A stretch of DNA of 64,000 bases from Lytechinus pictus (taxonomy: Eukaryota), in assembly GCF_037042905.1 (NCBI RefSeq), contig NC_087245.1:9860001-9924000 (forward strand). Reading direction: 5' to 3'. Position numbers and translations under genes: made by a program. The stretch's first letter is position 1. Every line of letters starts with the position of its first letter. The notes under the pieces were generated by a model. The model was not told where the DNA came from and made no database searches. It saw only the letters and a program-made list of their open reading frames with translations. Positions 38,513 to 61,482 of this stretch are shown here, piece by piece.

Positions 38513-41500
38513 AGTAGTCATATAGTGTGAAATTAATTCCTGGAGTATAAATGACCAAATAGTTAAAGAAAATATGTCGCATCTGACATTTTTAAAGGGA
38601 TAGTATGCCCTCCTGATATATATATAATTTGTATTTTTGTATAAAAGTATGATATATAAATCTGAAGAAAATAGATCACATCATTTTGTGAGAATATATA
38701 AAATTTGTTTTTGAGTGATACGTTGTGCAAATTTACCAACTGTTCGATGTTTATTTCAACCCAGACATGTACATCAATTTGGTCAAAATATAACAAGAGA
38801 TAGGGAAGTGAGGTTCACAGCATTACCTTCAAACATAATACATCTTACTATAAAAAAGAAAGACATCTTAGTGACCAAATAAATTCCTTGATTATAACAC
38901 TTCACTTCAATGACAAAAGGGGTCTTTCACATTGGTAAACTGATGTACTTCATATATTCAAATTTCTTCTGGGAAATACATTTTGTATGAGTCTTGGACA
39001 CTGTTGGAGAAACCATGAAATTAAAGTTTTAAATGCATTCTTCAAAAACACATCTTTCTGGACAACACTGACTGAGTTGAAAATGAAATGAAAAATGCAC
39101 TGCCAGGAAACAAACCAGCTTTTGACAGAATTACAATCACGATCATATACCGTACATACGACCAGCTACTGCTTTAATACTCAATGCACACATTACAAAC
39201 AGGTCTACAAATGACTTTCTTTCAATGCACATATTTAGTAATCTACCAATTTCTTTGAAATTCTCTGGTCATCGTGATCAAAACAGTGCAGAAAAGGAAA
39301 CAAGTGTGTTCAGTTGCACTTCAAGACTACAGATAGTTTCACTGTCCTCAATATATATTTCCACATTACAGTACTTGTACATTCTATCCACATCACTTTA
39401 CACGTACATGTATGCAATACACCAACTAATTATGACTAACACTGTAGTTTTGATACGACTTACCATTCACAGAAAATTAACAAAGTTTAGAAACTTCAAT
39501 AACAGAAGTTGGCATAGAATGAGTTGACTTGTACTAGTAGATGGGAAGTATTATGTAAATTGAAGATAGCATTGCTAATGTACATGTAGATCGTAATGGC
39601 ACGATGGCATTTGAAAATGTTTACTGAATGATGTATACATGTAAAATATAAAGAATATCACTGGTTTTGGAGTCTATTTGCATTAATTACTGAAGTAAAT
39701 TGAATGTACATGGAAACAGTGTAAATTACCTATTTAAAGCTAATATATTAATAAATGATGCAATATTTACTGTAGCAGGTACTATGCTAACGTTACGTTT
39801 TAAGGATTAATGAACGATGTGGTTTTGTGAAACAGCACGAAATGATGCTAAATATATGCTGGTATAGAAGGGTGATGTCTCATTTCACAGAAAAGTGCAA
39901 AGTACATGTACATCCACGTACAAGATATAAACCTTTCTTATATGCATGCACATATATTCTTTATTGATTGTGATGACTTGAACATGTTTATGATGCTGTA
40001 TTCCTGTTACAATATTAATCTTAAGTTATCAATATAATACCCCAGACACTGCAGTATACAATGATGAATGATGAATTTGAAACCGATTGAAACCAGGTGC
40101 TACTTTCAATGTATCAACTGTCATATCACACTTGGAGATTGCAACAGATGGTGTACCAACATGGTGTGTATGTATTTGTATACCAGCAGAATATATCCGT
40201 CTATGGTCATAAGATGTATGCATGTAGTTTATACTTCAAAGTACTGTGAGTTTAGTACACATCAGAGAATATTAATTTACATTTAACAATGTTTAAAGAA
40301 GTACTGACGTGAAGAGTACTATACTCTCTTGTTGATTGAGATAATGTGAGACTTTTATAACAAAATTGATATTTCCATGACATTCATGGAAACTAAATTT
40401 GTAACATGCATGCTTCAAGCACAAATGACAAATTCCATGTATTTTACACAATTCTACCAGATTTACAAATGCACAATTATGAAGCTTATCCACTAGAAGA
40501 ATCACATAGCTTTGTAATGTCTAATACATGACATTATTCCCCTTTGATCTTCACAAACATTGGAAAGGGCCTTGTTCATATATCACAAAAAGAAACAATT
40601 AACTTTTACCGCTGATTTGTAATGTTTAGTGCATGATTTCACATAGACTTACAATTACTATTCATGGTATAGTCAATTGTATCTTACATGTACAGAGCCA
40701 AGATTACTACAAGTTATCTAATAGAAATATCTCTCTAGCATCATATGTAACATACATACTGTACAAGACATGACAAACTTGATATCTAGAAGTATTTTAT
40801 AGACATAAAGTGTACAAGAATAAAGAAAAATATGGACCTCGTTGAGATTCTATCAGACATGAAAAATAATTGAATTATAACTTGATTTAAAAAACTAGAA
40901 TGTACATAAAGATTTAACTAATTTCAAACTCGTTTATAAACCTTCTCTTATGAATTACTAAGCATAAACCTTTTCCCCACAGTCCCACACATCCTTGGAA
41001 ACTTCTTTTCCTACATTTCTAACACAATTTACTTTATGTCCAATTTACATAGAATAGTCTTGTAGTGTTCTCTTCCCTTCATTTATTTCACCCAATTATA
41101 AATCAACATTATAAACAAAAATAATCTGAAAATATGTCATTTATACTTTACACTTTCAAAATTCTTAAGTTATTTTCCTTTAAATTATTAGCATAATACA
41201 TACAGTAAACGATGTTCAAGAAAAAAAATCTATCATATCTCTTAACTTATACAAAATGAAAATGATAAAGTTTAATAAATAGATGACAGATCAGGAATAA
41301 ACATTCTAAGCCTTTTTGAGCAGTACTGTATACTTTATAAGCCTTCTTATATGATTAAAAAAAAAATGTTATAGCATGTTAATAATAAGACCAATAAGTT
41401 TTTATGCTAATCTCTCTAAACATCTTAAATTTCTCCCTCTGTTCGACTCAATAATGTAATTTTTATAAGATTGAAGGTTGAGGATGAGATCAAGGAACAA

Positions 41501-41536
41501 AGCCCAAAATAAATCTTTTACGATGCACATCTAACC

Positions 41537-41626
41537 CTAGGTACCTTGATTGGAGCTTTGAACAACCACCACATAGGGACCACTAACATACCTCATCAAA
41601 CAACATGCAAATGCAATTCCAAAGAT
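41537..41626 (-). CDS. Tetraspanin alternative terminal exon 6b (IFGIAFACCLMRYVSGPYVVVVQSSNQGT*)
   Basis: ttttgtttcag acceptor; the first 12 codons encode the same residues as 6a; TAG at 41539-41537. An internal AG|gtatgt donor is also possible. Confidence 0.8.
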   Translation of the reverse strand: MFGIAFACCLMRYVSGPYVVVVQSSNQGT

Positions 41627-44600
41627 CTGAAACAAAATGATAGATATCATCATTACTTTGCTAGTATTAATTATATACACCAATAATCCCAGATCATTCT
41701 TATTTTGTATTTCTTAATGTTTATGACTTATAAAATACTATTAACATGTGAGTTTTCAAAACCAAATGAGATACAAGATTAAGTTATAAAGGTGGAGGAT
41801 GAGATGAATGATTAGCCATCTTAAACCGTCTCATATTCGCCTTTAACAACCCTCATCAAACAGCAAGCAAATGCGATTCCAAAGATCTGTATTAAAATAG
41901 AATGATAGAAACCAAAATATATATAATGATGAATCAGGAAATAAACCATGATTAGTAGTACTATTCCCGTAGTCAACAAGGACCCTTCCCGAACCACTTG
42001 TATTAGTCCATATATATTGTAATGTTCAATATGAGCCCACACTAAAGTTTTCATCACTGGCAGGTTTTTATTCATTATAGCAACAGTGCTTTTCATCTTA
42101 GCAAAACAAAGGATATCATAAATATCATCTGTGGGTAATTTGTTACATCCTTCAGAAAATGGAAGCACGGAGGGTTCTTTCACAGACAACACCTAAAATC
42201 TATTAAGAGAGATCACATAAATTTCAAGAGATTCGATTGGTCTACCTCTTATTCATATTGATATAAAATATGTTAGTGAATAATACAAGGGTCCAATAGA
42301 ATGAAGAAAAATATGACAGATTAAGTATGAAATAATACTTTTTACAAATACAAGTCTGTAAAAAATCCACATCTCAAAACGTATTGCACATACCGGTAAT
42401 CATACTGCAAGGGTAATACTTGAAACTTGGTAACACATCCCCAAAATTAGTTAAATAAATATCACATAATCAATCAAGTGTTTCATTGCCTTTGTCAATG
42501 CTAAGCTGAACATTATACAAACCAACTTTAACATTTAAATTGAACAATGATAATAGAATGGCATATTTTCAAAACAGGATATGTACCCACCTCAATGACA
42601 GCAATGGCAATGGCTACTCCAGCTATAATTCCAATATTGCCAATCAGAAGATCTTTGAGTGCGGGGTAGCAAGCCTGAAATATCAAATAACACATCAGAA
42701 AATAAATTTCCACATCAAATGGATAATCATCCAATAGATGTGTCAGAAAAAAAAAACTTTCAACACTTTCTTGGGGAAAAATACCAAATCAGCAATAATA
42801 GAAAAATAAAAGTACATCTTATCAGCATTTGAATGCTACCTTGATGATATTTCTATGATTTAGCACTACTGAACACCATTGTTTTGAAAATATTTAGCAA
42901 AATTGCATTTGGTTCATTTGCAAAACCAACACAATGGAATTGAATTTAAACAGAAAATTGATTGTATACTAAAGGTTTTCTCAATAAGATTTTTTGTTGT
43001 TCCACATCTGCCCTTTTCAATAGCCTTTATATTCAAATTTGAAATTCTCGACTGATTTTCACATTCAGGTTCTTAATGAATTCATGCACAAATTTATGAA
43101 AACCAGTTTTTTAAGCATGATAAAAAAATTGATGCCATACATGTAGGAATCAAATAACGATTTCTCTCAAAACAAAGAATTCTCACAAAGGTCCCAAGGA
43201 CCATGTTACAATTTCCTAAACCTACTCTAGACGAATTATTAAGACAATACCTAATCCATTCCATAATTAGCTACCCAGACAAAAGCCAAGGACTGAATTT
43301 CAAAATTAAATGTTACATGTAATATCTACAATGAAATAGACACGTATCACATCCACTATATTCATTATTCAACACTTGATAATCTCTTTATCTTGTTGAC
43401 AACTAAATTCTCTGAATTCCTTTTGCTTACAACAGAGACCACTAGGTTCACAAAGAAAACAGGTTAATACTAGACCATATAAAGCTTACTTCTGTGTAGA
43501 TATCAAAGTTAGTTGATCCTGGTACGTTGCAGTTTGAAACAGAAGGTGACTTGCAGCATGATTGGGGAACCATGTTGGGATTCGAAGCGTTATACCCCAA
43601 CCAGTCAGTGTAGTTATCCGATCCACAGCATTCCAACTAATACACATACAACCATCGACACAGGGGGGAAAACAAACCATTCAAATACAAAATGAAGGAG
43701 CTGAAAGGTTTTTATTAGACTTACGTAGACATGTATTTTACGTTCTGCCACAAACGGATCGCGCGACACATCACTGTTACAGCCTTCTAGCATTGTAATA
43801 CAGCATGACATAGGTACCACGTTGTAGCCAGCTGTGTCGTTAAAGCCAAACCATGAAGTATAGTTGAGTGTTCCACAGCACTCCAACTGATGGGTTAGTG
43901 AAAGCAGGTATTTGCAGAGTAGGATGGATGCGAGTATGAGGAGAGTAAATGAGATGCGAGATGTATTATGGGTTAAGAGTGAAAAGCATGAGACTATATG
44001 AGAAAATGTTAGAATTCTGGTTAATTTTCAAGGTTGCAAACCAGACCTTGACACACTATCCTGCACTATCACTGGATCATTAAAAGCTCCAGACATGCGT
44101 GTACATTCAATATTTTTTGTTTTGAAAATTTACCCTCCCTATCAATAAATGCTTTTTTTTTCTTCGCTTGTTTATTTTGTGTCTGATGCTGCATGGTCTT
44201 TCCCAAAAAGTAATTGATGAAAATGCTCAAACATGTATAAATAATGAACATACTGATAAATGTCAAGAAAATCTGTACTCTGATCCCATTCAATGTGTCA
44301 AGCTCTGTATATTCTAAATTATGCAAAATCACACAACAACAATTAGAAAATACATACAAATATTTGGTGATATAAATGAATTACGGAGAGTTTTAGAGAA
44401 AAAAGAGACATGTAGAAAGAAATATACATGATGTGGAGCAAATTTGAAATGTAATTTCTTGAATTTAGAGTAACAAGGGGCAAACTTCTGTATATTATCA
44501 TCTCTGAAGATGTGTAAAAAAATGACATGTACATGTAGTCCAGGAAAAATAACTGATTTTGGGGGTCAACCGCAAACAAATTGCAATATAATTTCTTTTA

Positions 44601-47600
44601 CCACAATGCATTTTCCTGAAGTCCCCAAAATGACATACTAAAAGTCCAGAAAAATCCCAGTAGTGGAAAGACGTCTAATTTGCATAAATCCAAAATGGCC
44701 GCCAAATTTTCAGAAAATTTGAATTTTCGTACATACATTTTGACATGAACATTTAATTGCCACAAAATTAGTGTCATATGAAAGAAAAAAAAATTCCTAT
44801 AATTTGGTACTATTTATAGGGGATAAATAGATAATTTGGCTGAGATTTTTTAGTAGAAAACTGCATTTTTGTCATTTTCCCCAAAAATTGAAAATTTTGG
44901 AAATACATTATTTTATATAAATCTAAGAAAAATGGAGCAATTACCTTGAAATGTTCCAGAAAACTTTAATAATATACTATTATCATGAGGATGCAATTCT
45001 AAATTGGTGTCATTCTTTTAAACAAATTTATAAGGTATCAAAGTTGACTATTCAAATTTCACAAATGTCGCGTTTTGTATGCATTTTCGTACACTAATAT
45101 GTATAACGTATCTAGTGTATACAGTACAGTAGTTAAAGATTGTATGCATTTATATACGCTTTTTAACCACTTAGTTAAGATTAGGCTTTTCTTTATCAGC
45201 TACATAAAAAGGGCTGGCACATTGACGTCTACCCCTCTCAGGCATGTCAGGGGGCTGTCAAAGTCACGCCCTCTGGCTATATCATGTTGTACAGTGTGTA
45301 TCAAAATTAACGCAACCACATTACGTTCCAAATTTGTGAAAAATTTGTTAGCTTTATAGTCCAGGAAAAATGACTGATTTAGGGGGTCAACCTCAAACAA
45401 ATTGCACAAGAATTTTTTTAATGCAATGCATTTCCTTGAAGTCCCCCAAATTTCATACTAAAAGTGTTTTTAAAATCCATGTAGTGGAAAGACGTCTTAT
45501 TTGCATAAATCCAAAATGGCGGCCATCGCAAGAATTTTCAGTAATGATTACAAATAATAGTGCAAACACTTGTCTGATCTAGCACTTTAAAAAAATTATG
45601 ATTAAAGCATTTACCTTTCACCAGTGTTATATCTTACCATAGGCTTCGTCTTAAAATTGGGATGCAAGTCAGATTTGGCCTCTGCTGACCTCTAGAGGTC
45701 AATGACCTTAAGGTCAACGACCTCAAAATATCAGAAAATTGATGTTTTGCATCATTAGCTCATGATAAATATAATAATAATGCAAACAAAATTATCATTC
45801 AATATTGACTTTCAAGGTAACCTGATATTCTAGAAAGAATTTTGTGTATTATAAATGTTGACCTTTGACCCTGGACCACTGGAAAAGGTCAATAACATTA
45901 ACATATTACAATATTGATACTTAGCATCAGTGGTTTATGATAAACAGGCCTCTCGTGAAAAAATTGCAATATAATTTATTTCAGCACAATGCATTTCCAT
46001 GAAGTCTCAAAAATTACATACTAAAAGTCCAAAAAAATCCATGTAGTGGAAAGACATCTAGTTTGTATAAATTCAAAATGGAGGCCATCGTGAGAATTTT
46101 TATTTTTACAAATAATAGTAAAAACACTGGTCTGATCATAGCACTTAAAAAAATAATGATAAAAGCATTTAACTTTCACCAGTGTTATATCTTACCATAG
46201 GCTTCATTTAAAAATTCCAATGCAATTCAGATTTGACCTCTCCTGACCTCTTGAGGACAATGACCTTAAGGCCAATGACTTAAAAGTATTGATGTTTTGC
46301 ATCCAGAGTTCTTGATTAGCATCATGTTATATCAACTTGTGTTTGAAATTTGAGGATCTCTAAAGAAATTTGACCTTAAAATGTAAAAATATTGGTACTC
46401 GGCATCACTGGTTGATATGATAATGTTTTGAGGTAATTGACCTTTCACTTTCCTCAGCAGTCAAATGTTGAGATCTGCAAACTTTACTCAAATAATCAGT
46501 TAAAAATACCAAAACCATATCATCTGTATAGTTGTAAGTTTGTAACGCTAGGGGCACGTTTCATAAAGAGTAACTTTGCCATTATGGCAACTACCATGGC
46601 ATTAGGGTTCAGCAGCCAATCAAAATCAAGGTTACCATGGTAGTTGTCATAATGACAACGTTACAACCTTTGTAACTCTTTATGAAACGGGTCCCATGTC
46701 TGTTTTGGCTAGTACATTCCTGACTGAGGTTAGAGCATTGGGAGGTTTTGAAATGATATCTGAAATGCCTCAATTATTTTTTTGCAGTTATCATCTATGT
46801 ACACTACCCGAGAGACTTGCAAGTTTTCCCATCTAGATTGTAACCTGGTGTAGTTGCTCTTTAGAAGGGAGATGCAGCTTACCACGATGCTGGTTGGCAC
46901 TGCACTTCTCTTCCCGTAACTTGCATAATGGTGACTCTGTCAGAGGTTGGGCAGAATTAAAAATATGTTTCCTAGATTTTAGGCTTTTTCAACTAGTTTG
47001 GCATCATAGATTTGATGGACGCTATGTCTTCGCTGAGAGCTCTGTGGTATAGCTACTGATCTGCGTATATCAGATGGGAAATACCTGACAGGACATACAG
47101 ACTCTTCACATTCTTTGGCTTTAGATAGCCTGTGATAGTCCCACAAGTGTTGTCTAGAGGTAGACGTGTCCAAGACAGCACATGCATACTCTGTAGCAGA
47201 GTATTGGTGGAGGAGTTTGTCAGTTCCGGAGAAGGTTATTATGGATCCTCACTTTCCACCTTCACTCTTAATGTGACTGATAAAGGTTGACACCAAGATA
47301 TATTGCATGGTCGCAGTGCTGGAATGGAATTCAAACCATAGGTTTTTTTTAGTTTCCTCATAGCATGATGATTGTGGGGATGAAACAAGCTAACCTTGGT
47401 CTTTAGGTTTGAAGACTGGACTCAAGCAAGAACACTACCCTGAGAGAGTCGGTTCTTTTGAATTCTTTACCTGCTGGTCTTCCTGTTGAGCTCCATAAAG
47501 AGATGTCTGTTTTATAGTAGAAGTTTGATAAGTTTGGTCAGATGATTATCATCAATGATTTGTATAGTTGTACGAGTAGACCACAGTATCAGATGCAGCT

Positions 47601-50600
47601 GCTAATTCAACAAAAATTTTCTACACCCGTTAGTTAGTTACCGGATTAAGTCGGAAGTCCTCAGTGAACTGAGTCTGGTTGAGAACCTAGCTTGTATATT
47701 ATTTCCAAAGTTAAAAACCAGCCTGGTTAGGAATATGATATGTTGTTCTATAATGGGACCATTTATTTTTTAGATGAGATGCTCAAGTAGCTTGTAGAGA
47801 TATCAGAAAAGGGCGATTGGCCTGTAGCTTCTAGGCACATTTGGATCTTTCCAAGGTTTGAGGAATTACTTTAGCCTTCCTCAAAATTTCTGGGAGATGG
47901 GACTGTGTAGCACATTGTTAAACAGGCTGCCATTCTTAAGTATGGAAGCTTAAGATGTTCATATAATCATCTCGTCATGTCTACATCTCTTAAGGAAAAA
48001 AGATAAGATGACGAAATCTCGGATCTCGTCTTGTCTACATCCTGCGGGAGAGATGATCATGTGACAAGATCTTGGATCTCGTCATGTATACATCCTGTAA
48101 GAGAGATGATCGATGACAAGATCTGGGATCTCGTCATGTCTACAACTCTTAGGGAAAAGGATAAGATGACAATATCTTAGATCTGATCATCTCTCCCACA
48201 GGATGTAAAAATTGCGAGATCCAAGATCTTGCCATCTGATCATCTCTCACACAGGATGTAGACATGACGAGATCTAAGATATTGTCATCTTATCCTTTTC
48301 CGTATGTAGACATGACGAGATGATTAAATGAACATCTGGGTGGCAGATCAAAATGTTTCATTTACTCAGAGTGGTGTCACCGAAGCGTGCTGCCTTTCCC
48401 TTCTTTGTTCCTTCAGTTTCAATATCCAGGTGAAGTCTCCATTGGACTGGTCCCACGGAAGATATCCACTTTGGTGTATCTTGTACTGGGTTGTTCTATT
48501 CAGCAGAAGCTGGATAGTAAACTAGTTAAGATCAATATTCTAAATAAATTGATCTTTGAAAGTTTCAGGGTTAAAGGTCACAACTTATAATACTCGCAAA
48601 TTTTCTCATGTATCAAGGGACCTTATAAGTTAACAAATTATTATGATGCAAAACATAAATTTTTATGATATTCCGACGTCAATAATCCTTTAGGTCATTG
48701 CCTCTAGAGTTCAGCACAGGTCAATTCTAAATTGCATCCGATTTTTAAAATGAAACCTATGATAAAATTTAACAGTGATGAAAGTTTAACGCTTTAATCA
48801 TATTCTTAGTGTTATCATCAGACCAGTGTTTGTACTACTACGATTAATCATTTTGGATTTATGCAAATTAGATGTCTTTCCACTACATGGATTTTCTGGA
48901 CTTTTAGTATGTCATTTTGGTGACTTCATGGAAATGCATAGTGCTCAAATTAATTGTATTGCAACGTTTACACTAGAAGCCTGTTCATAAATCAGAGATG
49001 CTACGTGTCAATATTCTAAAATGTTAAGGTCATTGACCTTTTCCAGCTCTCCAAGGTCAAAGGTCAAGACTTATAACCCACCAAATTCTTTATAAAATAT
49101 CAAGATACCTTGAAAGTCAATATTGAATCATTTTGTTTTCATTATAACCATATTTATTATGTACTAATGATGCAAAACATCAATTTTCTGATATTTAGAG
49201 GTCATTGACCTCTAGAGGTCAACGGAGGTCAAATTTGACTTGCATCTTGCTTTCAAAATGAAGTCTATGGTAAGATATAACACTGGTGAAAGTTTCATGC
49301 TTTTATCATAATTTTTGAAAGTGCTATGATCAGAACAATGTTTGTACTACTATCAATAATCATCAAAAATTCTTACGGTAGCCGCCATTTTGGATTTATG
49401 CAAATTAGACATCTTTCCACTAAATGGATTTTTCTGGACTTTTAGTATGTCATTTTGGGGACTTCATGGAAATGCATTGCGTTGAAAAAAATTCTATTGC
49501 AATTTGTTTGCGGTCAAACCTTATTTTTCCTGGACTAATGTACACTAGTGCAACATTACAAATATACAACTAGCATGTATGGCTGAAACTTCAATGATAG
49601 TTATACAGAAATTAATCTCAGGCATCAACATCCACACAAATAATGTACGTACAGTATGGGCAGTACGAAACGTATGTACATGCACGTACATGTACATATA
49701 TAATTCAGAATGCTATATCATTTGGCAAATTGATTTAATGAAAAGAAAGAATACATTATCCAAAAGTTCTGTGAAAATCAATTACAAAAGCATGAAAAGT
49801 CTATTTGTTATTAGAATTATCAGATTTTCTACATGTACACACTGCCCATTTTTTTGTTTCTGAAGCACCCTTTGTACGTTGCATGTTCAGGCAAAATTTG
49901 GTGTAGAAACGATCGTTCTAAGGAAAGATATTGAAGAAAATATGCTGTTAAATTCCATTGACGCCTATGTACAAGTAAATGACAAACACACATTACTCAT
50001 TTACAACAAATTATACTTTTGTAACTTGCTTCCTTTTGCCAAAGTATGGCAGTACTGTACACATATCTTTCAAAGTGCAGCATGTCTAACTCTAACCGAA
50101 AAATGATCATGGGATATGTTTATATTGCTCTCTTCCAAAAGAGTCAAATAGCTTCTTAAATGTCAAGTCCACCCAAGGAAAATGTTGATTTTAATCAATA
50201 GAGAGAAATCAAAAGAGCATAACACTGAAAATTTCATCATAATTCAATGTAAAATAAGTTATGACATTTTAAAGTTTCATTTATTTTTTAACAAAACCAT
50301 TAGATGCACAACTCGGTGATATTCAAATGAGAGAGTCACTGGTGTTCCTCACTATTTCTTTTACTCTTGATTATTTGCATTGAATAATATTTCTATTTTT
50401 ACAGATTAGACATAAAGATCAACTTGACTGAGCCAAAAAATGTTAAAACAATGATTATTCCACATTTCCAGGGAGGTATAAAACTTTTGTTTCACATGAC
50501 AATGAGAACAAAATTACATAGACTGTATTTCATATAATACAATACAAAAGAAATACCGGTAGTGAGCAGGTGATGTCATCAGTCCCCTCATTTTCATACT

Positions 50601-53600
50601 GACCAGGATGTGAATATACTGTACAATGTACATGTAACTGTTTTGTGAATTTTCAGTGTTATACCCGTTTAATTTGTCTATTTTTATTCAAAATAATTTT
50701 TTGTTAAGGTGGAGTAATCCTCTTATATAACATTAACATGCAGAAAATCTGAAAATTGTAATATAGAACAAATAGTTCATTATAGCCTGGTTGCCATCTT
50801 GAAAAAAAGTGCCAATCGGTGATGATCACTTTTACTACATGTACATTACACTCTAGAAATTCAAATGAGACTTACAAAATCATAACTTTCTCATTTAAAC
50901 CAATGTTGATGGAAGAACCTTTTTTTTTCTTTGCTTCTCTCTATCCCCTAATTTCATGCCCATTTGATTTATAGTGAGTTAACATGTACATAAATATTTT
51001 GTTAAAATGCATTAACAATACATGCAGTACAATGGAGCGCAGTGCATACAATTGCAGGGTGATTGTATGAACACTATTAGCAGACAGCAAAAGTACAAGG
51101 CGACTTTGAATAGGAAATATTGCACAACAATGGGGGGGGTTGTATGGTTTTGGATATTGGATAATAAGATAATTAGTTCAAATTGCCATTCCCCATTTCA
51201 GACACAACTCTGATCAGATTCCTTACATGTACCACCACCAAAAAAATATATATAAGTAATGGAACAGATGCTGAAAATATAGTAATTACAAATCACATGT
51301 ACTGAATGAAAGCCTATAATGGGATTTTAAAAAATCAACAGATAATCAGGTATAAGTACATGTATGCATGCATTCATAAAGTACATGTACAGTACATGAT
51401 GTGCAGTGTAAAACATATATATATTTTTTCTCTCTCTCTCTCTTTTGGGGGGAGGGGGGGGGGCTAAAATTAGTACAAATAAGTGAAAAAGCACAACAGC
51501 TTATCAAAGTGCATTACATGTATATGAAAAGGGGATAAAGGATGGCAGAAAATTAGCATGCATGGTATTAAGGTGACAGAAAAGACAGTTAGCATGATTT
51601 AATAGAGAACTTTGAGTAAAATTCGAATAAAATGGCACTTGATTAAATGAAATCATACACAATACAGGTGATAATTAGCTATTTAGAGTTTTGGGGATAG
51701 TTAAAATGGCCTATTTTATATGAATAGGTGTACTACATGTAGCTGATTGAAAGTAAAAATGATTTTAAAATAATTTTCCTCTGCTGATGTCCTGGGGCAA
51801 TGTAAACCAAGATACGAAAAACAAATTATGAACAGGAACAGAATTAGAATAAAGAAATGATGTACAATGATACCAAATATTCCAGCTGTAACAGAGTGTG
51901 TACATGTACCTCCTATTGCACTTAACTAGGAATGGCATCTGAAATCATAATTTACAGTGTATACAAAATAAAATATCCAATAAAATGTCAAAAAGGAAAA
52001 TGTTCAGTAACTTTTGGAGGCATGATTAACCAAATTGAGAGAGCAATAAAATAAATATACAAATTAAAATTAAATTGAAAAATAAGGAGAAAATCAAGTA
52101 AAATATATACGTATAGAGATACTGTATAAATCAAGAAAACGAATGGAGGATAAAAATACATGTAGAAAATTCAAGTTCATATCCAGAACTGTGTCACATG
52201 CATGTACATGTACATGTAGTCTATTAAATGTCTGTACTGTATTAAATACATACTGTACATGAAGGTCCATACAGTCACTGAATCCATGATATGATAGAGT
52301 ACATGCATACATGTAATATGGAATTCATCTAGACTTTATGTATGGTATGTTTTGAACAAAGAAGAACTGGGTTGGTTTGTTGTCACAGAACCTCTGAGCA
52401 CTTTGGTAAATAAACTCATTTCTATGTGTGACTCTTCTATTTAGATATAGCATATTGCAAGCCTCTAAAGCAAGGGCACAATGTAGAGATCAGGGAGTGG
52501 TGACAATCACAATATATGAATAGAAAATACAAAAATACAACTTGTCAAAGACCGTATTTGAGGACCGATGAGCATCTGAATTTCTTAATACAAAACATAA
52601 ACATTTGGCTAAATGAAAAATGCTCTGCTTGCATTTGTGACTAGCACAGTGAATTAATTTTTAATAAAGCACTTACTGTATGCCCATGACAGGCAAATCA
52701 ATATAGCAAGGTTTATAGCTAAATTTAATCCCACACAACTACAATTTCTCTTTTTCCCTTTTTATTGATTTATTTGCATCAATTGCTTTGATATCTGACT
52801 CATTCACTTTGGCGTTAATAAAGTATAGACATGGATAGTATCAATTAGAGTTGGTATGGCGAGTAGGGTGAATTGAGAAAAGACATGTTTTTTTCTGAAG
52901 CAATCTCATAAATTATGTCATAAAATATTATGAATATATTTTCATCTATCAATAATTTAAATATACATTTCCGAAAAGAAGGTACACCTTGATAAAAGGA
53001 CCTTGTTAGGGTCTAGTAGAATCCTTTCAATTCCTCATATCCTGGCTTCACTCCTGACCTTTTCTACCAAGGTCATATTGTGGTCTTGTATATATCTGGG
53101 TAGATACCAAACTCTTCTATAATGGAACAAATTCATATCAGAAGTGAGAGGAAAACTTTGGACTGAGAAATGATCTGTGATGACATCCATTCATTTGTTA
53201 AATGGGCTTTTAGACTTCAATAGAGGCTTAGAAATCTACATCATCTCAATTACCGAAGGATAAGATCATTTTTAAAGTGCAAGTAAACAATGGTATCGGG
53301 TGAAAATATCAAAGAAATGGGCCTTCCTAGTTCCCACATCATGCACTAGAAAAAAAAACATGCACAGGTTTCCTTTAAGTGTCACAGACTGGTCAAATGA
53401 GTTCAGTAGTAAATATCACTAGGTCGGGTACTTACGTTTTTCTGCATGTTATCAAAGAGATCTTTCGTTGATTCACTTTCGTTATAAGTCTGTTGGAGTT
53501 CAGACATGTTGTCGTCGATCAGGTTATCAATGTCATCACGTTTAACATAGCCAGAGATACCAGCCGCCAGTTCCAAGATCAGGAGAAGAACCATGATGAA

Positions 53601-56600
53601 TGCAAACTACAGTGTGAAATAATAAAAATAACAGTGTATCAAATTACAGCCATCATACACACGCAAGCTATCACAGTACATGTGACTAGCTGGGATCGGC
53701 TGTCATATGATATCCATACACGTACAGAATTATTGGCCAATAGATGTGTAAATCTAGGATTTTTTTTTCCTGAAAGACACAGGTACCCAAATAAATATGG
53801 ATGATTCCATGGTCAGTCACATTATGCTACTGCATGTCTTTTCTATTACTTGATGCTGTCAGTTTTACAGGGGTGAGATTTCCTGTCAAGTTTATTATTT
53901 ATAAGTTGTAAAATTGTGCAGAGACTCATGCTAATATTTTTTTTCATTCAGTTGGCATAATTCAATAACGGAAGGACGCAAACAAGTAAATATTTCATTA
54001 ATAATCGCTAAAACTATAATAAAGGTCGAATTGAGTAATTTTTCAGTAAAGCAAGAAATCATATTTGCTATGTTTTTAAACAACCAGGGGGAGTTGCATA
54101 GAGAGTTTAACAGCAAGTCAAAAATATCAAGCACAAGTCCAGAAAGCATGCCTTTGATTGCTTAAAAATCATGTTGCTTGTGATTTTTAGAGTTGCGTTT
54201 GGTAAAATTCTTTCTGCAATGGGCTACAGGACCTTCACGCATTATACTGTACATGAGGGTAATGATGAAAACATGATTACAGTATTGAAGTCCAAGAGAA
54301 GAAATTTGATAAAATCAGGATAGTTTCCTTTGAAACAAATTTTATTAGAAGCACCAATTCGAAAAAAAAAACAATGTAATTATAACAATCAAACAACATG
54401 TGTACTAACCGTTGCCAGCATGCAGTAGTTCTCCTTGACTGCTCCGCAACATCCAAAGAATCCAGTAAGGAATATGAAGACACCAATACAGATGAGTGCT
54501 ATAGGGATAGCTGTTCCTGTATTACCGGTGAAGTCTACATACTCACTGTACAAGGTCAATGTCAAACTTCCTCCGATTATGATACCAAGACCGAAGATCT
54601 GCAAAAAAAAAGTATGAGAAGAATGTTATGGTATTAAAGGGAAGTTACATGTATAATCACAACCTTCCTATTTTCACTGCAGTCACTTTCAGGATAATGC
54701 AACGATTATTATGATTAAAATTTAAAATGAGGGAAAATATACATGTACATGTAGACAGCGAGTTGCATGAAACATCTTCAGTATTTGATGCTTTATAAAA
54801 AGGGATGACAATAAAACAAAACAAAACATGGCTGACAGGCACTAAATTTCTCCATATTTTAGGTTAAGGTCATTTTTCCGCAGGCACAAGTACAGGAAGT
54901 CAAGAAGACAAGAAAATTCTGGAATAAAGGGCAAAAATGACCAATGAAGTACATGTCTGTACATGTAGGCAAGGTCAATCAAAAGGATACTTGTGGCCTT
55001 GAATGTATCTAAGCCATGATGCTGAAAATAATCAATTAGCCAAATTGGAAGAAAGTGCGGCACTACACATGCAATATACAGTACATGTCAAAAATGAGGA
55101 TAGTGAAAACAAATAGTATTCACATGAGGATGATTACGACAATGATAGGCATTTCATTATATACTGCCATCTACAGTACATGTATCAAGAAATATTCTAT
55201 TCCAATGAGCACAGGAAAAATGGACAAAAATAAAAGTTTGGATGAGTGTCATAGTGCCAAAAATTGATAACATAAAATATAATACTCCAGTTTACATTTA
55301 ATGATTTGATATTTCTATTTTAATAGTAAATTTATTCCAAAGAAAAGGTGCTGGGGAAAAGGAAGCTAATTCAGGCTACTCATGTAGGGGTCTTTAGAAG
55401 CTCTTGTGATGATCTCAGGCTACGAGCTGGTACATATATATACAAACTAACTACACATTGTCGGGTTCAAGAAGGCTGAACTCTGTATCACCAGACTTCA
55501 AAGGGTTCATGAATATCACATGACATTGGCAGTTGGTACAAACACAGGCTTTTAACAAAAACACATGTACATATTCTACAGTATTGTATGTGAAAATCCT
55601 CTTATTATCCTTGGCAAAGATAATCTGAATGTTCTGGGTCATGCTGCATGCATGTTTATACAATTTTAAATCTATTTGCAAAAACAACAATGAAGGATTC
55701 CTTCTCTCTTTTTTTCCTTCCATTGTTTGTATTTTCAGGAAATCAATAAAGTCTGTTATCCGTTATCCATGAACAAACAACATTATCAGATGGTCAGCAG
55801 ACATCAGATTGACCTTAAACAATGGTCAAGGCCTTTGAATACATGTAATGCATACAGTAAAATAACATGAGATTCCTTAAAATATTTATCAATAAAGATA
55901 CCTATTTTCTGTGACTTCTAATGAGCACCTTTACTGCTTTTTTTAGAAATAGGTTATAATAATTATTATACATATTCAATTATACAGCAATCTTTATCAC
56001 ATACATTGATATCACTTGTACATTTTAGCTTAATAATGTCATTGAAAAATCACTGACAAAAAGCTTCATGAGATGCTCCTCTGACTGGGCAAAATATCTT
56101 CAGGTTTGATGAACAGTATACATTCGTTGTAGCAAATATGTTCATGTAGCAAACATAATTAAAAAGTAACCTTCCCAAGTCATGCTTGAATACTTGCATG
56201 CATTGTAGCACAATAAGCAGTCATGGATGGTGTACTTTTTGCTAATTACATTGCAAATTACATGTATGAATATGGGTATGGGTGTGTTGATGTGATAGCA
56301 GCCTGTTATGCACTTGAGGTCTCATATTTTATGCTAGTCACCGAACCAAACCTAAGTACCAGCACTTAAATTTAGCAGCCATATCATTTTATAGGGATTC
56401 GTCCTTGATTCCAACTGCAAAACATCTCTCATGATCATATCCATGCTACTTTACAGTACTGGTACATGTATCGATGTACATGACCTGCATAAAATCATGC
56501 GTAGTGGCTCTAAATGCAATGCTTTCTGCATGCGTTAATGCATGTACACCAATTATAAAGGCCATGAAATTTATAAACTGTCAATGGATAGGTGGACTTG

Positions 56601-59600: not shown

Positions 59601-61482
59601 AAAGCTACGCACTCAATTTATCATGCAAAGAAAAAGTATTTCCTGTGCCTAAACTTCTAAATAATGTTCATATTCTTATAGGAAAATATGGAATCAAAGT
59701 GAATATAACTCCAAAATTCCAAACAGTTGCTGGTTTTCTCTGTAGCTGTATTTAGCGATTTATTGGCTTTTATAAAATAGGTGTATTATTTCAAGCATCG
59801 CGATTGGCCAATACGCGTCACATGACATCCAACTTTTTGGGTGCACTGCACTACAATACAGTGCGCAACGAAAATTGACATTGCACGCTCAAGCAAACCA
59901 ATGCGGTAGAAGTCCCGGGAGAAGTCCAACAATTAGATATGAGAAGTCAATTTTCACCAACTTGCCCCACTGCCTCCTTAAACTTTTTGAAGCATGAATG
60001 AAGCAGACAAAATTAGAAGATGGACCTGGAAGCTCGACTGCTAATTCAGCATTCTTCCAGTATTTGCGGTAAGGTACATGTAAGGTAAGACTGAACTGTA
60101 ACTTTTTAAGAATTTGTTTCTGTGTTGCTATTTTATAAAACAAGTAATGCACTTGCTCTGTCGTGCGTAAAAGTAAATGCAGAGAAAGCTCGGTTTCTTC
60201 AGATGGTGCACACTTGGCACTCGCCGCCAGCGGCTCGTGCACAGTGCGGCACCTATCTAAAGAAACCCCGCATACCTTTCGAGGTATGATTTGAAGGACT
60301 GTGTGGAATTGAGGTTTTTTATTCCTGGTGGGAGATTGTTCCAGTCTTTTTATTGGTAAAAAAAAAACTCCTCAAAAACAGACGGCTGCAAGCTGTCTAC
60401 GACTGGTACTGGTAGTGGTATACCCAGTGGTACTTTAGTCATGGTTGTGTGTCCGGACGGGTTGTGTGTACGGACGGGTTGGGTGTCCGGACACATGATT
60501 TTTACTCTCAATTTTAAAAAGTTTACAAGCAATGTCTTTAATTCTTTTTAGCACAGAATCTAAGAAAATATTATAAAGAACAAATATTGATGGTGAAAAA
60601 AAACTATTCAACCTATATTTTTGGTTTATTCCTGAGATAAAAACAAGGCTTCATTTCTGTTAACTTTAACGTTAGTGTTACGTGTCCGGACACCCAACCC
60701 CCCACCCTAGCCAGGCGGCTTCTAGAGAGTAAAAATCATTTACTAACGTAAGGTCACTCTCATGAAGCCAGGGCTTCCGTCATATACTTTTGTGTGTACC
60801 ACCAAAAAACCTGAAACTTTCGCCCCCGAGATTTCTACTTTCTTTCTAAAAGATCTAGCCCTAAATCATGTACATGGGATAAAACTTCATTTCCGACATT
60901 TCTACGCTCTCGTTGTTATTTTTGAACAAGAATTCATCAAAAAAATGAGAGAAATATTGTGTAAAGACGGAAGAGACTTGCCCGATGTTTACGCCGCCAT
61001 CTTGTTTTCTATTGTTCTTCCCCAACGTTACCCGACGCACGCGTCTGTAACGTTAGCGAAGAACAATAGGAAACAAGATGGCGGCGTAAACATCGGGCAA
61101 GTCTCTTCCGTCTTTACACAATATTTCTCTCATTTTTTTGATGAATTCTTGTTCAAAAATAACAACGAGAGCGTAGAAATGTCGGAAATGAAGTTTTATC
61201 CCATGTACATGATTTAGGGCTAGATCTTTTAGAAAGAAAGTAGAAATCTCGGGGGCGAAAGTTTCAGGTTTTTTGGTGGTACACACAAAAGTATATGACG
61301 GAAGCCCTGGCTTCATGAGAGTGACCTTACGTTAGTAAATGATTTTTACTCTCTAGAACTTAGAAGCCGCCTGGCTACCCCACCCTACGTTACTTATAAA
61401 CGTTAGATCTAACGTTACTTACGAAAAATATGAAGTTAAAGAAGAACATCAAATATTTGATGCATTTTGCCGATCCTTCCAT
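41537..61482 (-). CDS. Tetraspanin, 6-Cys EC2, CD63/TSPAN7-like; 6 coding exon positions with duplicated alternatives at positions 4 and 6
   Basis: Exons 61482-61423, 54598-54410, 53606-53436, [43886-43725 or 43636-43490], 42674-42591 and [41886-41821 or 41626-41537], all phase 0 with GT-AG. Four TM segments, KCIKYLMFFFNFIF, GFFGCCGAVKEN, CCG, PxSCC and a C-terminal YxxPhi. Exact orthologue not assignable by eye. Confidence 0.95.
41821..41886 (-). CDS. Tetraspanin terminal exon 6a (IFGIAFACCLMRVVKGEYETV*)
   Basis: tacag acceptor, TAA stop, terminal YxxPhi motif. Confidence 0.93.
   Translation of the reverse strand: MFGIAFACCLMRVVKGEYETV
42591..42674 (-). CDS. Tetraspanin exon 5 (ACYPALKDLLIGNIGIIAGVAIAIAVIE)
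   Basis: tttcag acceptor, GAG|gtgggt donor; last EC2 Cys and start of TM4. Confidence 0.95.
43490..43636 (-). CDS. Tetraspanin exon 4b, variable EC2 (LECCGSDNYTDWLG...VPQSCCKSPSVSNCN...DIYTE)
   Basis: tattag acceptor, GAA|gtaagc donor, 147 nt open, 5 Cys. Confidence 0.92.
43725..43886 (-). CDS. Tetraspanin exon 4a, variable EC2 (LECCGTLNYTSWFG...VPMSCCITMLEGCN...KIHVY)
   Basis: catcag acceptor, TAC|gtaagt donor, 162 nt open, 5 Cys. Confidence 0.9.
44536..49537. mobile_element. 5-kb composite non-autonomous DNA transposon, Academ-like (TAG..CTA ends, 3-bp TSD ATG)
   Basis: TAGTCCAGGAAAAATAA ... TTATTTTTCCTGGACTA with ATG on both sides; a second left end at 45357; about 1-kb diverged inverted arms (45357-46430 vs 48560-49537); no intact ORF. 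Confidence 0.75.
47964..48326. mobile_element. Foldback-like MITE built from about 57-bp internal repeats, nested in the 5-kb element
   Basis: TAATCATCTCGTCATGTCTACAT ... ATGTAGACATGACGAGATGATTA, with repeated GATCTCGTCATGTCTACA units in both orientations. Confidence 0.8.
53436..53606 (-). CDS. Tetraspanin exon 3 (FAFIMVLLLILELAAGISGY...LFDNMQKN), TM3 and constant EC2 helices
   Basis: tgtag acceptor, AAC|gtaagt donor. Confidence 0.96.
54410..54598 (-). CDS. Tetraspanin exon 2 (IFGLGIIIGG...GFFGCCGAVKENYCMLAT)
   Basis: ttttgcag acceptor, ACG|gttagt donor. Confidence 0.96.
57275..58227 (-). mobile_element. DINE-1/HINE-type (Helentron-associated) element with an internal tandem array
   Basis: Subterminal IR GTCTCACCTGCAT (57297-57309) / ATGCAGGTGAGAC (58210-58222); five 147-192-bp units starting CARGATGTTCAGT; (GCC)n microsatellite; terminal stem-loop; A/T-run flanks. 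Confidence 0.75.
60708..61377. mobile_element. 670-bp near-perfect palindromic element with TAG..CTA ends and an 8-bp TSD (hAT-like MITE)
   Basis: About 315-bp arms, apparently identical except a 7-nt insertion near the right end and a few central mismatches; CCCCACCC at 60700-60707 and 61378-61385. Confidence 0.92.
61423..61482 (-). CDS. Tetraspanin exon 1 (MEGSAKCIKYLMFFFNFIFF)
   Basis: caaaATGG start context, TTC|gtaagt donor, canonical tetraspanin N-terminus and TM1 start. Confidence 0.93.

Follow-up and report, generated by a model that had tools for sequence, protein, structure and literature searches.

How much diversity can a single tetraspanin gene draw from splicing when two of its exons have been duplicated? 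The question is raised by a CD63-like tetraspanin gene on the minus strand of a 64,000-nucleotide stretch of Lytechinus pictus DNA (contig NC_087245.1, positions 9,860,001 to 9,924,000; hereafter the window), whose 3' half consists of twin exons for the large extracellular loop (EC2), exon 5, and twin tails. The original prediction read this arrangement as a two-by-two matrix in which either loop could be paired with either tail, the two choices perhaps being coupled. The analysis reported here favors, with a probability of about 0.68, a single CD63-like tetraspanin gene whose two splice choices are unrelated, one between ancient either-or EC2 exons and the other involving a younger tail acceptor of Lytechinus.

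Structure of the locus

The gene has two independent duplications around the 84-nt exon 5, at the predicted place on the minus strand (Table 1). Each isoform, as read from the sequence of the locus, has five coding introns, all of phase 0, with AG/GT at every internal junction. The four proteins foreseen from the exon combinations all have open frames, namely 243 amino acids for 4a+6a, 251 for 4a+6b, 238 for 4b+6a, and 246 for 4b+6b, and these are letter-identical to the RefSeq L. pictus "CD63 antigen-like" isoforms X3, X1, X4, and X2, respectively. Lytechinus variegatus has the same four RefSeq models. In both species these are automatic models that carry no phasing, proportions, homology, or age. 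An assembly or haplotype artefact can be set aside, since annotation of other species has these pairs too and RNA reads connect exon 5 with 6a as well as with 6b. Within the window, a search for a third exon-4 copy gave none under E 0.1, a profile of exon-4 segments found 4a and 4b only (E 3e-22 and 2.9e-20), and no additional exon-6 copies were found. The hexamer AATAAA occurs in the region of the shared 3' UTR at 41087, 39965, 38755, and 38512.

Table 1. Features of the tetraspanin gene, in window coordinates.
Feature	Position	Strand	Description
Exon 1, coding part	61423..61482	-	Start codon and first half of TM1, 20 aa; equals the RefSeq N-terminus
Exon 2	54410..54598	-	Remaining TM1, small loop, TM2; 63 aa; Pfam Tetraspanin, 47.4 bits
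Exon 3	53436..53606	-	TM3 and constant EC2 helices; 57 aa; its end matched by loose ends of reads at the 4b acceptor
4a acceptor region	43887..43996	-	AG-free over 105 nt, 35% C, 8 YCAY; candidate regulatory element
Exon 4a	43725..43886	-	162 nt, 54 aa; EC2 variable domain, rare; RefSeq isoforms X1/X3
4a-4b intron	43637..43724	-	88 nt; branch-point-like motifs 10 and 32 nt from the 4a donor
Exon 4b	43490..43636	-	147 nt, 49 aa; dominant EC2 variable-domain exon; RefSeq isoforms X2/X4
Exon 5	42591..42674	-	84 nt, constitutive; sixth EC2 cysteine and first half of TM4
6a	41821..41886	-	Proximal acceptor; TM4 end and tail with terminal YXXΦ (YETV), stop; read joints
Proximal 3' UTR of the 6a form	41627..41820	-	Spliced out when 6b is used; lacks AATAAA/ATTAAA; YCAY-rich where it begins
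6b	41537..41626	-	Distal acceptor; duplicated TM4 end, longer tail (internal YVVV and 8 residues), stop; RefSeq isoforms X1/X2
Long shared 3' UTR	38800..41536	-	Continues past 38800; one-strand read depth unbroken in all bins

Of the large outer loop, exons 4a and 4b each encode the variable half (CCG motif to just before the last cysteine), and both align to positions 141-172 of the Pfam Tetraspanin domain. The two share 21 identical residues and retain CCG and PxSCC; each has five cysteines and two N-glycan sequons, and the last two loop cysteines are spaced by 19 residues in 4a and 14 in 4b. With the single cysteine of exon 5, either exon yields, at the level of sequence, the loop cysteine pattern of tetraspanins. 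Exon 2 alone scores well above the PF00335 cut-off of 32.1 bits, exons 3, 4a, and 4b give fragment matches below it, and the same domain is precomputed for protein record P0001. AlphaFold2 models, each built on a 60-sequence alignment, predict a four-helix tetraspanin fold with a large outer loop for both 4a+6a and 4b+6a (pLDDT 85.2 and 87.5). In Foldseek the top matches of the 4a model are Tspan15, CD53, CD9, and CD81, and the CD63 loop superposes with an rmsd of 2.2. Databases name the protein CD63-like, while the best sequence match in the PDB is TSPAN7 (9w2b, E 4e-38), whose alignment to the final loop segment of 4a is free of gaps. Two relatives, P0014 and P0019, differ in the exon-4 segment, where they carry seven cysteines in place of five, the extra pair lying in the loop; one of the two is a brittle-star protein.

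The introns hold repeats of their own. In intron 1, about 65 nt past exon 1, an inverted repeat (60720-61358) with arms of 312 nt, 99% complementary around a 15-nt loop, looks like a young foldback insertion, and the pre-mRNA would carry it as a long hairpin. The 9.5-kb intron 3 contains several diverged copies of one interspersed repeat (44528-46316 and 48643-49544), which lie in both orientations, reach 917 nt, and are 73-89% identical, and at 47953-48337 there is a tandem array with a 53-nt unit that is self-complementary along its whole length.

Age and distribution of the EC2 exon pair

Neighboring, homologous, of the same phase, and similar in length, 4a and 4b fit the tandem-duplication criterion for mutually exclusive exons. 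Annotated isoforms of both the 4a and the 4b type, with one tail each, are present in Strongylocentrotus purpuratus, Diadema antillarum, and Diadema setosum. A tree of 11 urchin exon segments splits by exon type and not by genus (support 97/98). A topology that pairs the two Lytechinus copies is rejected (p-AU 0.0008), and one that pairs the Diadema copies is rejected weakly (p-AU 0.041). Given that the exons group by type and that genus-wise duplication is rejected, a single duplication before the split between the diadematoid and the camarodont line is indicated, the urchin relationships being taken from PMC9339218. The tree does not discriminate (p-AU 0.11) between roots of the pair with and without 4a and 4b as a single urchin clade against the outgroups. 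Splits inside the diadematoid group are dated to the Triassic in PMC6293586; on that date the 4a/4b duplication is at least Triassic, which is a lower bound. Judged from sequence comparison, then, the pair is ancient and was duplicated before Diadema parted from Lytechinus and Strongylocentrotus. The relatives in sea star, brittle star, crinoid, and hemichordate have one form each among protein records.

Both exons have diverged at similar rates. Across orders the identity of orthologues is 50-60% for 4a and 55-63% for 4b, and between the two Lytechinus species 51 of 54 and 46 of 49 residues are identical, 94% in either case. This counts against over-reading a single divergent record, P0010 of MetaClust, which from exon 2 onward matches the isoforms of S. 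purpuratus, all 49 residues of 4b included, except in 4a, where it agrees with them (P0008/P0011) at only 46 of 59 positions. The difference reflects either very different alleles or two tandem copies of 4a, that is, a third tandem exon. Since 4a alone departs while 4b and the rest are identical, diversifying selection or a third tandem exon would suit the pattern. From this one may construct a picture in which 4a supplies a recognition surface that diversifies fast and is confined to certain cell types, gametes or immune cells for instance, on an otherwise housekeeping CD63-like protein. A YCAY-binding factor could set loop and tail alike, so that partner and compartment would change jointly in those cells. 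The picture as a whole is improbable. Wider searches for 4a added little: a short-protein search for further urchin 4a transcripts gave none, a metagenome scan yielded 11 loci, all of them distant (26-39% identity), and five of the eight matches in a 50%-cluster search were unrelated repeat proteins.

The locus had also been taken to diversify by splicing in place of gene duplication. Splicing is not the only route, however: in S. purpuratus gene duplication runs alongside exon duplication, there being paralogous genes with a 4b-type loop exon (P0022, P0024, P0134, and P0135), whose altered tails have no terminal YXXΦ.

Use of the alternatives in RNA

Four of the 21 listed runs were compared with positions 38800-44100: the RNA runs X19, X20, and X21 and the contig set X5 (organism B). 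About 6% of each of the three raw runs was read, their tissue is not given, and joints were listed from three reads upward. Exon 4b was joined to exon 5 in 105, 163, and 86 reads (X19, X20, and X21, here and below), and exon 5 to 6a in 89, 172, and 70 reads as well as in one contig of X5. Joints of exon 5 to 6b numbered 0, 6, and 10, which puts the 6b share at 0/89, 6/178, and 10/80 (0-12.5%), and the runs differ (chi-square p 0.0003). At the 4b acceptor, 140, 165, and 71 reads had loose ends matching the end of exon 3, a match judged by eye because exon 3 lies outside the stretch compared. The bin covering most of 4a had a depth of 0.51, 0, and 1.27, which translates into an approximate share for 4a of 0.4%, 0, and 1.7%.

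The RNA seen is thus dominated by 4b+6a, at about 87-100%. The form 4b+6b exists by arithmetic, or else 6b sits on molecules that skip both loop exons, for which there were no loose ends among those listed; in these runs 4b+6b is the most frequent of the minor forms. The two-by-two matrix is borne out insofar as both tails are used and four RefSeq forms exist, but it is a lopsided one in which 4a accounts for less than about 2%. In X21, where 6b use is highest, two alleles are present at 41809, 40374, and 40819, X19 and X20 having essentially one; 6b use could be allele-dependent.

No joint of exon 3 to 4a or of 4a to exon 5 is among the joints listed for the three RNA runs and X5 at the threshold of three reads. 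Joints of 4a to 4b are likewise missing, but with 4a near absent this has no bearing on mutual exclusion. Among the X5 contigs listed, one (depth 15) consists of 4a with its upstream intron and ends one base past the exon end, at the point where spliced and unspliced paths would fork, and offers a weak hint of 4a splicing. Gene models and conservation suggest that 4a is spliced. In the favored account 4b would be the default, with 4a kept out of the transcript in the majority of cells and its inclusion probably confined to a particular cell type or stage. That 4a is instead silent or decaying and merely carried over by gene prediction, leaving the gene effectively single-isoform, agrees with its near-zero depth, with the missing joints in the three RNA runs, and with its appearance in X5 only beside a retained intron, but is very improbable given that five species have retained its open frame, splice sites, cysteines, and sequons over a span reaching back to the Triassic or earlier and that it changes between the Lytechinus species at a rate equal to that of 4b.

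A second acceptor for the tail

The tails 6a and 6b form a direct repeat 260 nt apart with 77% identity over 75 nt. The original prediction treated 6a and 6b as duplicated exons, but 6b does not form a separate terminal exon with an end of its own, being a second acceptor in the 3' UTR of 6a. Neither AATAAA nor ATTAAA occurs in the sequence separating the 6a stop from the 6b acceptor, and reads span the 6a UTR, 6b, and the sequence onward beyond 38800. Alternative last exons with separate poly(A) sites are ruled out on these grounds, and 6b is consequently a distal acceptor within one long last exon. A strong GT donor motif stands at 41591, 35 nt into 6b, exactly where the similarity to 6a falls off. 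Use of this donor to make 6b an internal exon was considered and rejected for the reads in question, which extend 60 and 73 nt past the 5-6b joint with no joint listed there.

The tail duplication is known only from Lytechinus, where RefSeq annotation gives 6b models in the two species, and appears from sequence to be younger than the 4a/4b pair. It probably arose when the last acceptor was duplicated at a distance of 260 nt, which would have left 6b as a minor distal acceptor inside the 3' UTR. The 12 codons for the end of TM4 differ between 6a and 6b by three changes, all synonymous, and codons 13-21 differ at 11 of 27 nucleotides (Fisher p 0.005). The ancestral stop has been lost and 6b reads through it, and five of the nine codons of the tail now specify another residue. 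Like 6a with its tyrosine motif, 95 of the 135 proteins compared end in YXXΦ. In 6b the YVVV aligned to it is followed by eight more residues, and the YXXΦ, whose tyrosine and hydrophobic fourth residue are retained, becomes internal.

As for consequences, mutation of the terminal tyrosine motif of CD63 abolishes AP-2/AP-3 binding and leaves the protein at the surface, according to PMC8289845; by the same token 6b may shift the urchin protein toward the surface. The loss of a terminal position would probably weaken lysosomal sorting and PDZ binding, and use of 6b would shorten the UTR. The predicted exchange of a sorting module is a modest one, since 6b retains a YXXΦ that is simply shifted inward from the C-terminus by eight residues.

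The strongest rival grants the 4a/4b switch and takes 6b for splicing noise, a recent duplicate with a leaky acceptor and a decaying read-through tail that has no selected role. The narrow annotated distribution, the low use, the lost stop, and the changed residues all agree with this, and given that the 3' UTR region of Lytechinus is similarly conserved in organism B, the conservation of 6b is no special sign. Against it, the TM4 part differs from 6a synonymously only, an outcome with a probability of about 0.007 under neutrality if all changes fell on the 6b side, although they could all be on the 6a side. The retained tyrosine and hydrophobic residue and the significant difference in use between runs also speak against noise. 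This account is possible, and we regard it as the less probable one.

Control of the exon choice

Inclusion of both loop exons, or of neither, keeps the frame, and decay therefore cannot enforce the choice between them. RefSeq models in five species use either 4a or 4b, the exception being D. setosum isoform X3, which skips both; record P0010 joins both. What separates the exons is an 88-nt intron with an AG-free tract of 62 nt and motif-predicted branch points near the 4a donor. In alpha-tropomyosin, exons 2 and 3 exclude one another sterically, with a branch point near the upstream donor and a long AG-free tract. The urchin intron resembles this layout, its branch point being a motif prediction only, and would fit exclusion of the tropomyosin type. 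Because double inclusion stays in frame and the branch-point-like motifs lie too near the 4a donor, exclusion is probably steric. RNA structure was considered as the excluding device and discarded: the 4a region folds worse than shuffled sequences (z +2.27), and no notable inverted repeat joins the exons.

The acceptor of 4a is unusual in composition. Its C content is 35%, against 8-17% at six other acceptor-side stretches, and its eight YCAY put it at the top of 581 non-overlapping minus-strand windows, at a dinucleotide-shuffle p of 0.18 and for a motif chosen post hoc. A second YCAY-rich stretch begins at the 6a stop. The YCAY- and C-rich makeup suggests repression of 4a and perhaps a shared factor. 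In a search for Esrp control, no "tetraspanin" or "cd63" entry was found in six supplementary files of PMC5703972, which concern one embryo stage and depend on gene naming, and the sole row with 147, 174, or 177 nt in their sea-urchin sheet belongs to another gene.

The original prediction that the two choices might be coupled can be put in its most specific form as a cell-type program in which one regulator, such as a YCAY-binding factor of the Nova type, acts at both sites to produce a specific pair of loop and tail, for example 4a+6b. Two of the ten minus-strand stretches with at least 7 YCAY per 110 nt do fall at both choice points (upstream of 4a and at the start of the 6a UTR), windows of this density make up 0.56% of all on that strand, and in C. 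elegans unc-32 one factor governs two exon sets in one gene, as described in PMC3585155. The motif, however, was picked after looking, and the cluster at 4a is within dinucleotide expectation. The 16 joints of exon 5 to 6b in X20 and X21 stand beside depths of 0 and 1.27 in the 4a bin. Were 4a strictly paired with 6b, about 18 joints of 4a to exon 5 would be expected in these two runs; fewer than three are listed in each, at most four could hide under the threshold, and the probability is about 9e-5. Strict 4a-6b pairing is therefore rejected, and a coupled program is unlikely. With two unrelated splice choices, as favored here, the exon-4 and tail choices would be largely independent.

Comparison with known systems and implications

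The feature is real, its mode of splicing is ordinary, and its isoforms are already RefSeq models; the worthwhile part is the ancient EC2 exon pair. A full-text literature search, with subscription journals outside its scope and PMC4203478 included, turned up neither a description of the gene nor one of EC2 exons that are homologous and used either-or. The closest likeness is to FGFR1-3, where tandem homologous either-or exons, IIIb and IIIc, swap part of the extracellular binding domain and have long been conserved (PMC5703972). As in those receptors, the scaffold of the urchin protein is fixed, an extracellular exon is swapped, and the arrangement has been kept over a long time. Unlike there, the swap concerns the EC2 variable domain of a tetraspanin, and the pair is not found in the sea-urchin Esrp list of that source. 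The gene unc-32 likewise has two separate splice choices in one membrane-protein gene (exons 4a-c and 7a-b). Both of its sets are mutually exclusive internal exons with a demonstrated shared regulator (PMC3585155), whereas in the urchin gene the second choice lies between acceptors and a strict link between the two choices is rejected.

Among tetraspanins, the six-cysteine EC2 and the terminal tyrosine motif of 6a resemble those of human CD63 (motif from PMC8289845). Human tetraspanin splice forms, as far as the available portion of PMC6773723 describes them, are deletions or truncations and not homologous swaps as in the urchin. A polymer switch of the TSPAN7 type was entertained and dropped, as the interfaces of the TSPAN7 spiral reported in 10.1101/2024.06.27.600806 map to the constant exon 3 region and not to 4a/4b.

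Phase-0 introns bound the tetraspanin variable domain (PMC2650405), and an exon for that domain would on this account be easy to duplicate in frame. In the mechanism favored here, such an exon, encoding the variable half of EC2, would have been duplicated in tandem and both copies retained as either-or exons. Given that the variable EC2 domain determines the partner specificity of tetraspanins (PMC6773723), the exchange of 4a for 4b should change partners, and inclusion of 4a would present a different partner-binding surface on the same scaffold, as between FGFR IIIb and IIIc.

The tetraspanin family usually diversifies through gene duplication; here, an exon pair swaps exactly the domain that chooses partners. 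In a laboratory sea urchin, 4a and 4b amount to a natural domain-swap experiment in which the scaffold is constant and the surface altered. Similarly, the 6b acceptor sets up a natural experiment on whether a tyrosine motif has to stand at the very end of the protein to direct sorting.
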